Virus record (IMG/VR): IMGVR_UViG_3300027963_000084
Coordinates: 1-60,723 of that record
DNA length: 60,723 nucleotides
Direction: 5' to 3' (one strand)
DNA from: a virus
Lineage: Duplodnaviria; Caudoviricetes
Numbering within the stretch: position 1 is the first letter of the stretch; the number at the start of each line of letters is the position of its first letter. Positions 14,703 through 17,895 of this stretch are shown here, one piece after another. The position numbers and the translations under genes are program-made. Below the pieces are notes generated by a model. It did no database searches. It was not told the origin of the DNA and saw only the letters and a program-made list of their open reading frames with translations.

Positions 14703-17263
14703 CGTCGGCTCCCCATTGGTCCCAAGATAATGCAGTTGTCTTCGGACGACTGCGACCTGCGGCGTTTATCCGCCAGGTATTTCACCCACCACGGATCTGG
14801 ACCGTAGGTTTTCGGTGGCGGGTGGTATTTCGGCTCATAGGCGCAGAGGTACTCCACGCACTGACAGGCGTGGACTTCCCCTCGGCTTTGCGGTTCGTCG
14901 GTCACGTATATCTGACCATTGACGGTGGTCGTCTTTTTGCGGTAGCGGCGGATCTCCCGCATCAGATTGGGGCAGGTGCCCTCCAAGAACTTCAGCCTGG
15001 TGGTCCCGTCCCCACGGACGTGGAGCATCTGCCGGACGAGCGCGGTGCGGGCCGGAATGTCGTCGGACCCAGGCATAAACCCAAACCCGCTGATCTGGGC
15101 GCGGATGTTCCGCTTCTTTAGCTCTTCAGAATAAAGCTCATGCGGTAGCCGACCAGACCCCAAGTCACGGAGCATGCCGCCGTGCATGTCCATTATGAAG
15201 TTGTAGTAATGCTGTCCATCGGCCTTCTGGGCGAACTGCTCGCCAAAGATGAGAGAGTTTGCCTGCCGGATATAGAGTTCGTCGTAGATCAGAAGAAACT
15301 TCTCGTCTGGCGGCACTGCTCCAAATATGCAGGCAAGGACCGTGTGGCCCGGGTCAATTGCTACGTACTTCGTCCAGTCTGATGGAACTTGCCCAGCGGG
15401 TAGATCCTCTCGCCGCAGTACATGCACCGCTGGATTGAACGTCGGGTACATAAGCGTGGACTCTGTGGTGAACTCGCCTTCGGCGCGCATCCGAAGCTCG
15501 TCCATCCCCAAGGCAGACCACCGTTCAATGTTCTTCTTCTTTTCCTCTTGGTCAATGTGGGCGTTATCCAAAAACCGCAGGGTGAACTTCTTAATGATTG
15601 GGTTCTCACGCCCCTCTTCCTCTGCCTTGTCCGCACGTTCACACAACCCCAGCAGCGCATCGTTTTGAGAATGTGGCATAGCCGACCAAACAAACCGGCC
15701 TTTGCGGTCGGCAAGCCTCGCCTGCATTTCTCCCACCCATCGCTCGTTGTTAATATCCTCATCAATATGTACCAAGTCGGCTTGGAAACCTTGTGGGGGT
15801 TCGCCCTCTGAAGAGAAGCAATTAATAGTCCAACCGTTAGTTAGCTCGCACTTATTGAGGTAACTGGCGTTCTTCAGCACCCAACTCATATCCTTTATCA
15901 TCCGGGGCGGGATGAGGGGCGGAGCCGGTTTCGCCTTGGAGACATCGTCTTGCCCAGGCCGGAAAGCTCTCCACTGACCTGTCGTCTCGTCCTTTATCAT
16001 TTTGAACGCGCCCGCCCGAAACAGCATCGGCACCACCACCAGTCCTATGTGGGGCCAGTTCCGGCCTACTATCACCAGATTCCCGCCCTCCTTCGGATAT
16101 TTCCCGTATGGGTCTTGTCCGGTGGCTGCGCGTGCATCCTCTATGAAACTTGCGGCGCTCTTGCCCGAGTTGTGGTTGGGCACCCCGGCGATGAGGTAGT
16201 TGTGATAACCGAACACCTCTATGTCCCATATTTCTCCTTGCCCTAAATACTCGCAGGAGGTAATATACACATGTTCATTACCCCCCGAAGGAGCATTGCA
16301 TGGGTCGTCACAATAAGATCGACTGGCCGGTTGAGCAGTTAAGAACGTGGTATGAGGTTGAGCGCAAAACAGTGGTTCAGATAGGTGAACTGATGGGCGT
16401 GAGTTCAAAGGCTGTGAATAAGGCTTGCAAGCGTCTTGGCTTTCAGATGCGCCGCCGGGGGCCGAAAAATGGCGCGGAACATCCTTGCTGGAAGGGTGGC
16501 CGCACAGTGGACAAGGGCGGATACATTCTTCTGTATGTGCCAGATCACCCAAACTGCAACAGCAACGGCTATGTGCGAGAGCATCGGATCGTTTGCGAAC
16601 GTGTCCTTGGACGGCCTTTGTTGCCGTCTGAAGTAGTTCATCACAAGAACGACGATCCTTCCGATAATAGGCCCGAGAACCTCCAACTGTACGACTCAAA
16701 CGCAGATCACCTTCGGGAGACACTTGCAGGAAAATGCCCTCAGTGGAGCGAGGAAGGGAAGCAGCGAATTCTGGAGTCAATAAACTCCAGATCGACTTCC
16801 ATTGACCGGAGGCAGCTAGCACAAGGTGGTCGCGCGTACAACGAATCTCCCCTCCATTGCTCAGGCGAAACGCATAAAGGTCGCCCCAGCCCTTAACGAA
16901 GGGCGCTGTTGCCTGCCCGCCAACAACCTCCCCTTTACACAAAGCCTCCACCCAGAAGCCGCTATTGATCTCGCTGACAGTGCGGTGTTTTTGGGTCAGC
17001 GGGTCATAGATTTTTTGGTCGCCAGCCAAGCACCGATTGCCGCCGATCAGAAGGCGTTCGCTCGCCATGCACTTGTGGAACTCCTCCTGCTTGGGCATGG
17101 GGACATACAGACGCAGAGCTTCGATCCTGCGCTCTGCCAGTTCAATCTGCACATCCCGCAGCTGATTCAACGCATGCTGCGTGATGCCTTGGACCGCAGG
17201 CTCGTCAGGTGGGGGCGGCGCTGGGATCTGTGGGTGTTTTCTCATATTCTCCGCAGTAGTCAC
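14699..17263 (-). CDS. terL: Terminase large subunit, intein-containing
   Basis: Walker A GGNR/SGKS split by the intein; Walker B LVHIDE; nuclease motifs VAIDPG and IYDELY. Confidence 0.95.
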   Translation of the reverse strand: MTTAENMRKHPQIPAPPPPDEPAVQGITQHALNQLRDVQIELAERRIEALRLYVPMPKQEEFHKCMASERLLIGGNRCLAGDQKIYDPLTQKHRTVSEINSGFWVEALCKGEVVGGQATAPFVKGWGDLYAFRLSNGGEIRCTRDHLVLAASGQWKSIWSLLTPEFAASLPRSTEGIFLQVSPEGDLRLSRTVGGSRAYYRKDRRSCDELLQTATKAVQGHVRKRSDALAHSRCCCSLGDLAHTEECIRPCPLCGHPSSKDVPRHFSAPGGASESQDACKPYSQPLNSRPSVHLSEPLFCAQPHTTFLTAQPASRSYCDDPCNAPSGGNEHVYITSCEYLGQGEIWDIEVFGYHNYLIAGVPNHNSGKSAASFIEDARAATGQDPYGKYPKEGGNLVIVGRNWPHIGLVVVPMLFRAGAFKMIKDETTGQWRAFRPGQDDVSKAKPAPPLIPPRMIKDMSWVLKNASYLNKCELTNGWTINCFSSEGEPPQGFQADLVHIDEDINNERWVGEMQARLADRKGRFVWSAMPHSQNDALLGLCERADKAEEEGRENPIIKKFTLRFLDNAHIDQEEKKKNIERWSALGMDELRMRAEGEFTTESTLMYPTFNPAVHVLRREDLPAGQVPSDWTKYVAIDPGHTVLACIFGAVPPDEKFLLIYDELYIRQANSLIFGEQFAQKADGQHYYNFIMDMHGGMLRDLGSGRLPHELYSEELKKRNIRAQISGFGFMPGSDDIPARTALVRQMLHVRGDGTTRLKFLEGTCPNLMREIRRYRKKTTTVNGQIYVTDEPQSRGEVHACQCVEYLCAYEPKYHPPPKTYGPDPWWVKYLADKRRRSQSSEDNCIILGPMGSRR
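16238..16266 (+). promoter_or_regulatory. Candidate sigma70-type promoter for the antisense HNH gene
   Basis: TTGCCC-17 bp-TAATAT, ending 33 bp before ATG 16300; RBS GAAGGAG at 16287-16293. Confidence 0.5.
16300..16896 (+). CDS. HNH homing endonuclease with N-terminal HTH, antisense and nested within the intein
   Basis: HTH-like TVVQIGELMGVSSKAVNKACKRLG; HPCWKGG; YVREHRIV...EVVHHKNDDPSDNRPENL HNH core; strong RBS at 6 nt spacing. Confidence 0.92.
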   Translation: MGRHNKIDWPVEQLRTWYEVERKTVVQIGELMGVSSKAVNKACKRLGFQMRRRGPKNGAEHPCWKGGRTVDKGGYILLYVPDHPNCNSNGYVREHRIVCERVLGRPLLPSEVVHHKNDDPSDNRPENLQLYDSNADHLRETLAGKCPQWSEEGKQRILESINSRSTSIDRRQLAQGGRAYNESPLHCSGETHKGRPSP

Positions 17264-17895
17264 TCAGCATTGTCGTCGGCTGAGTGTCCTCTTCCTGCGT
17301 CACTTGCGGTGGGTAGCGGTGGCACTTCCCGAACCGGGACTTCGGTCCCACTGGCTCCCACCATCGGCATGTTTGACACTCCATGCTGTATCTCCTTCAA
17401 AGGGATTCCTTGGACCGTGATCGTTGTGGCCGCTTCCAAAATGCGGTCGCGTAGCTCGTCTTCCAACTCCTCTTCAGTCCAAGCTGTGAGGGGTTTCTTG
17501 GCTCCGCCCATCGCTGTGTTGGCAGAGACGAGCCGGACTACAGTGTCCAGCATCTTGGTGCGGAACGCGCCGCCGGAAGGGGAGTCGAACAGCTGCTTCA
17601 TATAGCAGTTGGCAAACCCTCTCACCCCGCCGAAGTATTCCATCAGAACCTCCAAGAGTTCTGACGAATGCGGGATGTTGGCTCCGCCGATGCGGGCCGA
17701 AGCGATGAACAGATCCACCGCGCCCTTCTCAATCTCCGCGAGTTTCTTGTTGCCCTTTTTCTTACGAACCTTCTTCTCATGGGCATTGCGGCACTTGCGA
17801 CACCGCGCGTGGAACCCATCCTTTGACTTATGCCAGTTCGCCTGGGTCAACTCATAAGAGTGACCGCACTGGATGCATGCCTTGTATTCAGCCAA
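17260..17895 (-). CDS. Zn-finger protein, positional candidate for terminase small subunit
   Basis: CIQC...CRKC N-terminus; directly upstream of and coupled to terL. Function inferred from position only. Confidence 0.5.
   Translation of the reverse strand: MAEYKACIQCGHSYELTQANWHKSKDGFHARCRKCRNAHEKKVRKKKGNKKLAEIEKGAVDLFIASARIGGANIPHSSELLEVLMEYFGGVRGFANCYMKQLFDSPSGGAFRTKMLDTVVRLVSANTAMGGAKKPLTAWTEEELEDELRDRILEAATTITVQGIPLKEIQHGVSNMPMVGASGTEVPVREVPPLPTASDAGRGHSADDNAE

Follow-up and report, generated by a model that had tools for sequence, protein, structure and literature searches.

In canonical inteins the homing nuclease is produced only together with the host protein. What becomes of this dependence when the nuclease is encoded on the opposite strand? 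We examined such an arrangement in IMGVR_UViG_3300027963_000084, a complete virus record of 60.7 kb (the window: the whole stretch of DNA analysed). Here a class-1 intein interrupts the large terminase gene, terL, and is itself overlapped, antisense, by a gene for a helix-turn-helix (HTH)–HNH endonuclease. Intein and antisense gene very probably constitute a composite selfish element seated in the Walker A loop of the phage large terminase gene.

Inteins with antisense nucleases are already in print. One survey (10.1101/2025.01.02.630785) describes actinobacteriophage minor capsid inteins with antisense LAGLIDADG nucleases, and antisense VSR-like nucleases in actinobacteriophage inteins, some of them in terminase large subunits; it reports an in-frame reading over the antisense nuclease without recognisable structure. 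The same source cites Gorbalenya 1998 and Gogarten 2002 for antisense-LAGLIDADG inteins, and cites antisense LAGLIDADG nucleases in Synechocystis DnaX and in a Chloroflexus SpoVR-like protein. For the out-of-frame LAGLIDADG of the DnaX intein, frame-specific selection has been reported (10.64898/2026.09.14.751524). The accessible part of that report calls the nuclease ‘out-of-frame (+2ORF)’ and does not use the word antisense; the strand is thus described otherwise in the survey. The original prediction for the window, which took the arrangement for an undescribed intein class, is superseded on this point.

How does the window element compare? With the antisense-nuclease inteins, as the accessible part of the survey presents them, it shares an in-frame splicing domain, a nuclease whose open reading frame (ORF) is carried by the opposite strand, a structureless in-frame reading, an invasion-like distribution and the terminase large subunit as a host. 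The difference lies in the nuclease, which is HTH-HNH (HNH_3) in the window, whereas the survey, in that same part, lists HNH nucleases only in-frame. In our literature search, outside which lay subscription papers and supplements, no paper describing an intein with an antisense HNH came to light. We conclude that the window element is the HNH form of the known antisense-nuclease intein architecture. With inteins that carry an in-frame nuclease it has in common a conserved catalytic loop as the site, Ser/Thr/Cys at +1 and a presumed homing cycle. In those, however, the nuclease is made only within the host precursor, whereas the layout of the window suggests that its HNH can be made independently of terL expression.

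Two further systems are close. In ShiLan-type insertions, an HNH endonuclease is hidden out of frame within a DNA methylase gene of a phage (PMC11855218). Like the window gene, the nuclease gene is overlapped by an open host frame, corresponds to a poorly structured host loop and evolves in a homing-like manner; according to the portion of that paper available, however, it shares the strand of its host gene, in a different reading frame, and there is no intein splicing domain, whereas the window gene lies on the opposite strand of a bona fide intein. In fractured genes, a free-standing endonuclease gene sits between the halves of a split intein (Dassa et al. 2009, PMC2677866). There too, as far as the available part of that account goes, the nuclease gene is separate from the intein polypeptide and stands at the nuclease-insertion point, but host and intein are broken into two trans-splicing genes, whereas in the window the nuclease gene is traversed by one unbroken frame of 854 codons.

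The terminase intein and the gene opposite it

The minus strand carries nearly all the long ORFs near the intein site, terL among them. In the terL frame ...LLIGGNR is followed by CLAGDQ...GVPNHN, the intein, and then by SGKSAAS...; the intein occupies 864 nucleotides (nt), or 288 codons without a stop, inserted between GGNR and SGKS. The Walker A motif is unbroken, as GGNRSGKS, in intein-free terL homologues. A protein search with the C-extein scored 8000 candidates, of which 879 were relatives at E<=0.001. The 120 listed in detail are mostly of about 560 residues and intein-free, with GGNR[S/G/A]GK[ST] uninterrupted.

Is the host gene a terminase? A tblastn search matched a ‘large subunit terminase’ at E 3e-8. 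Against the window C-extein alone, Pfam Terminase_6N scored below significance (E 0.19), and a PHROG search of the C-extein at 1e-5 gave no match. The intein-free relative P0003, whose C-extein is 94% identical to that of the window, reached E 2.4e-4 and 21.3 bits, against a cut-off of 22; relative P0018 passed it at 24.9 bits, and the label is common among the listed relatives. On this homology we take the host gene to be a divergent large terminase.

The sequence features that the original prediction had read from the window were borne out: the intein limits (Cys1, TRDH, HN-Ser), the split of Walker A between GGNR and SGKS, the lack of an in-frame LAGLIDADG or HNH motif, the complete HTH-HNH ORF inside the intein and its GAAGGAG ribosome-binding site (table 1). 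The intein-less site that it named, GGCGGCAATCGG abutting TCGGGCAAGAGC, is obtained from 17033..17044 and 16157..16168 by reverse complementation.

Table 1. Features of the terL intein and its antisense gene; positions are those of the window.
Feature	Position	Strand	Basis
terL precursor: a single open frame through N-extein, intein and C-extein, 854 residues	14699..17263	-	ORF list
N-extein, 77 residues, ending with first Walker A half, GGNR	17033..17263	-	translation
C-extein, SGKS...: remainder of ATPase and nuclease domain of terL, with stop codon	14699..16168	-	homologues
Class-1 intein, 288 residues, Cys1...His-Asn, Ser at +1	16169..17032	-	translation, Pfam, AlphaFold/PDB matches
N-terminal splicing region, intein residues 1–98; TRDH of block B at 66–69	16739..17032	-	pLDDT, variation, P0011 alignment
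‘Shadow’ linker, intein residues 99–252: reverse-complement reading of HNH gene and leader	16277..16738	-	pLDDT, identity
C-terminal splicing region, intein residues 253–288, blocks F and G, ending HN	16169..16276	-	pLDDT, P0011, invariance
HTH-HNH endonuclease gene, 198 residues, wholly inside intein, antisense	16300..16896	+	Pfam HNH_3, PHROG, homologues
Three-helix HTH-like DNA-binding part, HNH residues 11–45	16330..16434	+	AlphaFold helices, profile matches
HNH catalytic core, residues 68–141	16501..16722	+	pLDDT 90–97; Pfam HNH_3 over residues 95–130
HNH C-terminal tail, residues 170–198, ‘shadow’ of N-terminal splicing region	16808..16893	+	pLDDT 33–37, low identity
Shine-Dalgarno sequence GAAGGAG, 6 nt upstream of ATG at 16300	16287..16293	+	sequence
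Promoter-like element: TTGCCC (16238–16243), 17 nt, TAATAT (16261–16266)	16238..16266	+	8/12 consensus match
27-nt nucleotide-conserved stretch: -10 box and putative leader start	16256..16282	+	synonymous-site diversity

What does the terL frame encode between the exteins? In an alignment of 26 inteins the residues C1, H69, W269, D270, V273, Y279, G283, H287 and N288 do not vary. Block B, which is defined by a TxxH motif, reads T66-R-D-H69 in the window. A Pfam scan of the 288-residue frame detected neither a LAGLIDADG nor an HNH family, and no domain in the shadow linker. AlphaFold models the two ends with confidence, the predicted local distance difference test (pLDDT) being 86–95 over residues 1–98 and 76–92 over 253–288; for residues 99–213 and 228–252 it is <50. 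A Foldseek search of the Protein Data Bank (PDB) with this model gave 22 matches at E<=1e-3, all to inteins or to a bacterial intein-like (BIL) domain. The best are mini-inteins, headed by 4o1r (E 4e-6, template-modelling (TM) score to target 0.76). As modelled, then, the terL frame is predicted to fold as a mini-intein with a disordered linker over residues 99–252.

Splicing is predicted, on indirect grounds: terL is essential, its frame is open, and the exteins, when abutted, give the GGNRSGKS of the intein-free homologues. A split intein or fractured gene was considered and excluded, in view of the single 854-codon ORF and the absence of stops in 31 unique embedded relatives.

On the opposite strand, the HNH ORF matches Pfam HNH_3 (PF13392) at E 1.2e-10 and 41.3 bits, against a cut-off of 24.8, and 11 PHROG families named HNH endonuclease, the best at 5.3e-31. 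Homologues occur in 199 phage records (best 2e-23), annotated as HNH endonuclease, DNA binding protein or hypothetical protein. Among 31 HNH relatives H95, R96, E111–H115 (including H114 and H115), N123, N127 and H137 are invariant; the window ORF is full length and retains every one of the invariant catalytic residues. The AlphaFold model is confident over residues 11–165, with three HTH helices (11–20, 25–32 and 36–45, at pLDDT about 90), then an HNH core, in which strands 112–115 and 128–131 and helix 134–141 exceed 90, and a long helix. Residues 170–198 are disordered, and the length of this tail differs among relatives. A profile of the family, searched against PDB sequences, matched the helix-turn-helix-like chains 8vd6_A and 2lvs_A over residues 7–49; the same search found no solved HNH relative, the HTH part alone being matched.

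Two frames under selection

Why is the terL frame open across a gene on the other strand? Codon positions 1, 2 and 3 of the HNH gene oppose positions 1, 3 and 2 of terL. It follows from the coordinates, as the original prediction had it, that a terL stop arises wherever an HNH codon xTT, xCT or xTC precedes A. When synonymous codons were shuffled within the HNH gene, the terL frame remained open in 19 of 5000 trials, four stops being the commonest outcome; when HNH codons were redrawn from extein usage, 0.73% of 3000 trials were open and the mean was 3.66 stops. The open terL frame over the HNH gene thus exceeds chance, as had been claimed.

The same holds beyond the window. When viral contigs were scanned with the HNH protein, 35 loci were obtained (42–77% identity), and in 33 of them a long antisense ORF covers the HNH gene. 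All 31 unique embedded viral ORFs have the same codon register with no stop in the host frame, whereas the remaining two antisense registers contain 1–15 and 3–15 stops. The two loci that lack a long antisense ORF over HNH, L033 and L035, have five and four stops in the host register. By resampling, the frame would be open in <=0.5% of trials at the AT-richer loci L023, L026–L032 and L034, and in 1.3% at L025.

Which frame, then, is selected, and where? We aligned 21 unique inteins of 288 residues, without gaps and at 65–99% nucleotide identity (median 70%), and measured diversity by codon position. Under HNH residues 1–160 it was 0.158, 0.132 and 0.445 at HNH positions 1, 2 and 3, so that the peak falls at HNH position 3, which is terL position 2. 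In the N-terminal splicing region, in the DNA under the HNH tail and in the C-terminal splicing region the peak falls at terL position 3 (0.53, 0.45 and 0.36, respectively). A sliding window places the passage of selection from one frame to the other at intein residues ~76–90 and ~236–250; in the N-terminal splicing region terL third positions carry the peak as far as residue ~75–85. Read from the same DNA, the HNH frame has a mean pairwise identity of 0.79 and the shadow peptide 0.48. For HNH residues 161–198 the mean is 0.45 and the minimum 0.21.

This pattern supports purifying selection on the HNH frame and a shadow linker that appears constrained only against stops, as the original prediction had expected. 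Nor does the linker look like a conserved folded domain, the case that would have told against the prediction: its pLDDT is <50, its identity 0.48, and no Pfam domain is found in it. The predicted overlap of the HNH tail with block B is real, and can be refined: the tail (~161–198) is, by these values, not conserved as protein, and it is the intein frame that appears selected there. Selection on both frames, a disordered linker and a frame kept free of stops agree with the idea of a dual-strand selfish element with a shadow peptide.

The locus is a clean natural case of opposite-strand frames exchanging selection within 864 nt, and should be useful for methods that detect overlapping genes. 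For protein engineering, the ~154-residue linker, if disordered as modelled, indicates how much unstructured sequence this splicing domain may tolerate.

Possible separate expression of the HNH gene

How might the HNH gene be expressed? Among the 21 unique relatives GGAG stands at the matching place in 19 and an ATG start in 20; TAATAT is retained in 20 and TTGCCC in 11. Over the 27-nt stretch of table 1, diversity at terL third positions is 0.078 (n=9), against 0.437 (n=35) at those third positions in the C-terminal splicing region that lie beyond both this stretch and the HNH ORF (Mann–Whitney p 1.7e-4). Since it is the synonymous sites that are frozen here, constraint on the intein protein is not the explanation. 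In distant relatives TTGACA (L027, L028 and L034) or TATAAT (L031 and L032) occurs at the matching place. A sigma-70 scan gave a single plus-strand match inside the HNH ORF, at 16640..16668. A search for RNA runs containing this DNA listed none.

These signals make a separate promoter for the HNH gene, seated in the coding region of block F, most likely, and they agree with the prediction of separate expression as far as its signals go, namely a ribosome-binding site and a promoter-like element upstream. With such signals the timing and dose of an opposite-strand nuclease could be independent of the host gene, which offers a testable answer to how homing might precede late terL expression. A terminator-like hairpin with a T-run lies at 16972..16987 (+), 76 nt past the HNH stop, in the coding region of the N-terminal part of the intein. 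We give it no weight, as three such hairpins were found where 1.8 were expected.

Might the antisense ORF be an unexpressed relic, the intein being in effect a mini-intein whose linker is long and in which stops are lethal to the phage? The weakness of the promoter match would agree with this, as would the shortened ORFs at L011, L017 and L022, the first of which also lacks a start codon. Moreover, DNA identity to the closest of the sampled inteins is no more than 77.5%, so that no recent transfer of the window copy is seen. But the window ORF is of full length and catalytically intact, and the Shine-Dalgarno sequence, the ATG and the -10 box are each retained in 19–20 of the 21 copies. Across the family, moreover, substitutions gather at HNH third positions, which is not expected of an unexpressed relic. 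We regard a relic as very unlikely.

Relatives, distribution and probable mobility

If intein and HNH gene form a single element, is the combination found elsewhere? Of the 33 viral loci with a covering antisense ORF, 28 show by pattern the junctions GGNR, C...H[NQD] and [STC]GK[ST], and equivalent junctions were found by eye in the rest. A P-loop intein with the antisense HNH cassette occurs in a Terminase_3 gene (L031) and in a Terminase_6N gene (L025). Among 46 loci on genome contigs the HNH is embedded in 16, all in the register of the window, and not embedded in 30. Pfam was run on the hosts of seven of the 16. Besides two DNA methylases (L061 and L074, discussed below) these are helicases of the SNF2 type (L041) and of the Sno-like AAA_34 type (L050), AAA ATPases (L044 and L042) and an intein protein without another named domain (L047). 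Among uncultured phages the antisense-HNH intein layout is evidently a common one, which gene finders often call wrongly.

Junctions of the form C...HN followed by S/C/T-GK were observed for antisense HNH genes in P-loop inteins at L041, L044, L050, L051 and L042, L051 by eye only. At L042 (AAA_2) the junction is HHN followed by GGKS, with an odd Gly at +1.

How is the element distributed among terL alleles? We built a tree of 143 C-exteins with FastTree. It leaves out P0102 (no P-loop), L015 and L018 (C-extein <300 residues), L030–L035 (mismatch to the P-loop pattern) and the duplicates L003, L007 and L024; L025 is scored ‘none_A’ on it despite carrying an intein. On this tree intein-free, mini-intein and HNH-bearing alleles are interleaved, and 93 of the 143 rows are without intein and nuclease. 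No fewer than 16 gains or losses are needed to account for the HNH-bearing allele, and supported branches force 14 of these. None of 500 shuffles needs so few changes; the allele is clustered, yet far from having a single origin. The nearest relatives of the window on the tree are the intein-free P0003 and P0004. The 400-residue C-exteins of P0037 (intein-free) and L019 (with intein) are identical, and in L004 and L010 the exteins are 97.3% identical but the inteins 69.7%.

In a 301-nt contig from the metagenome of a different study, ~91% identical to the window, position 16162 is joined to 17032 with five other letters between, a net shortening of 864 nt, exactly the length of the intein. A second joint, 16129 to 17650, has a side of 39 nt and is too weak to interpret. 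By the residue that follows GGNR, intein-free terL alleles number 44 with Ser+1, 49 with Gly+1 and 14 with Ala+1. Inteins occur in Ser+1 alleles only, none being found among the 49 Gly+1 and 14 Ala+1 alleles, where the mislabelled L025 is set aside. It may be that the Gly+1 and Ala+1 clades resist invasion, or that they do not permit splicing. On these sequences the distribution of intein plus HNH looks like that of a homing element, as originally predicted: its alleles are patchy, and identical exteins occur with and without the intein.

Could the HNH protein instead serve the phage, as a packaging cofactor or as a weapon against competing phages, and merely reside in the intein? Many terminases need an HNH cofactor for DNA packaging, and the HNH gene is located within a terminase gene. 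In addition, many phages encode an HNH endonuclease beside the cos site and the terminase genes, as the accessible part of PMC3592412 describes. Yet the terL genes of the 93 rows without intein and nuclease are whole, and the patchy distribution argues that the HNH is not an essential packaging factor. Identical exteins with and without the intein point the same way, as does the presence of the same cassette in SNF2, Sno-like and AAA ATPase inteins, which are unrelated to packaging. Service to the phage is in our judgement very improbable.

How would a composite element work? Once the TerL precursor has been translated, a splicing domain of the class-1 mini-intein type would excise the entire insert. 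Where canonical inteins have an in-frame nuclease domain, the loop of this one is the reverse complement of a separate HTH-HNH gene; read in the terL frame, that gene gives a linker of ~154 residues, modelled as disordered and selected solely for the absence of stops, and the last 30–40 HNH codons are an unselected reading of the N-terminal splicing region. During co-infection the HNH nuclease is presumed to cut intein-free terL alleles with Ser+1. Repair from the occupied allele would copy intein and HNH gene jointly, which is homing. The likely origin would be the reversed insertion of a free-standing HNH gene into a mini-intein already present at the terL site.

Such mini-inteins are found, and at the same insertion site. 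P0011 and P0115 have inteins of 131 residues. That of P0011 aligns to residues 1–81 and 249–288 of the window intein, a linker of 11 residues replacing the insert of 167; it is 46% identical in the N-terminal splicing region (E 4e-18) and 53% in the C-terminal (E 4e-8). P0121 carries a 288-residue intein with a homologous shadow.

Do intein and HNH gene travel as one unit, or does the HNH gene home alone, with the intein as a tolerated landing place, so that separate units sometimes co-travel (‘collaborative homing’)? Free-standing relatives of the HNH gene are common, both in the 199 phage records and among the 30 genome loci where it is not embedded. Nuclease-free mini-inteins occupy the terL site, and relatives lie antisense in DNA methylase genes without a detectable intein (L061 and L074). 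All this would suit independent homing. But register and splicing-block junctions are uniform in the 31 viral and 16 genomic embedded copies, and block F of the intein harbours the putative promoter; this argues that the two now move as one unit. We find it very doubtful that the HNH gene homes alone, an account that differs from the composite element mostly in history, not in present mechanism.

The methylase loci are L061:2452-4176 (-) and L074:1523-4489 (-), where the HNH lies antisense inside N6_N4 DNA methylase ORFs in the same register with no stops. Pfam did not detect an Intein_splicing domain in either methylase ORF. The layout looks like an antisense counterpart, by analogy, of the published same-strand ShiLan insertion.

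A broader proposal can be held tentatively, with a confidence just short of even: that the HTH-HNH cassette, its promoter lying in block F and its antisense register never varying, is an autonomous homing module that has spread into P-loop mini-inteins of several terminase families (Terminase_6N-like and Terminase_3), into those of AAA+, SNF2 and Sno-like ATPases, and also into intein-less DNA methylase loops, and that its antisense position uncouples the nuclease from a late, essential host gene. If so, the nuclease could be produced early, or in an amount of its own, with the host frame needing only to be free of stops, and two-strand selfish elements of this kind would form a large class that is for the most part unannotated.

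Several points weigh against the composite element. As to anatomy, Pfam Intein_splicing matches the window intein at E 7.4e-6 and 26.3 bits, under the curated cut-off of 35.8 bits, which relatives L031 (38.7), L027 (39.3) and L032 (68.2 bits) exceed. Searched against PDB structures, the HNH model comes closest to I-HmuI, but weakly (E 0.32), and none of the matches reaches E<=1e-3. As to expression, the promoter-like score of 8/12, weak by itself, is reached by 3.0% of 4044 background 90-nt windows of the genome, under a sigma-70 consensus that may not be the host's; the sigma-70 scan, at a threshold of 9 of 12, detected no such element upstream of the HNH gene. The -10 box overlaps the conserved intein residues Y-I-T, so that the synonymous-site argument alone separates the two constraints. 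As to stop avoidance, the resampled frame is open in 1.4–26% of trials in the close, GC-rich group A, modest values for each locus; the loci are related, so that their probabilities cannot be multiplied, and the L011 value was disregarded. As to mobility, the extein tree is without bootstraps, recombination could mimic gain and loss on it, and precise loss, rather than gain, accounts for part of the patchiness. Finally, the loss of the HNH start at L011 indicates that some copies decay.

Other copies and neighbouring inteins deserve mention. At L011:2393-3256, AGG replaces the HNH start codon, the ORF is shortened and the terL frame is open; L011 is a candidate for a decaying copy heading to a mini-intein. 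At L032:1119-4910 (-) an open frame of 1264 residues contains, besides the antisense-HNH intein, a second HINT/intein region at residues ~863–1239. In P0005, P0008, P0012, P0035, P0050, P0096 and P0105 (7 of the 120 listed) the terL call begins 21–34 residues before the C-terminal HN of the intein. Evidently gene finders truncate terL at the antisense gene, and annotation is affected in that gene callers stumble over this layout.

P0006 (888 residues, with a C-extein 88% identical) has at the same site an intein of 322 residues with an unrelated insert of odd composition, ending HAQ rather than HN; scans of viral and metagenome contigs with this insert found nothing. P0020 and P0065 carry a LAGLIDADG_3 intein at a second site of the terL family, after HACQ/HASQ in the nuclease domain. 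The terL family of the window is a hot spot for inteins.

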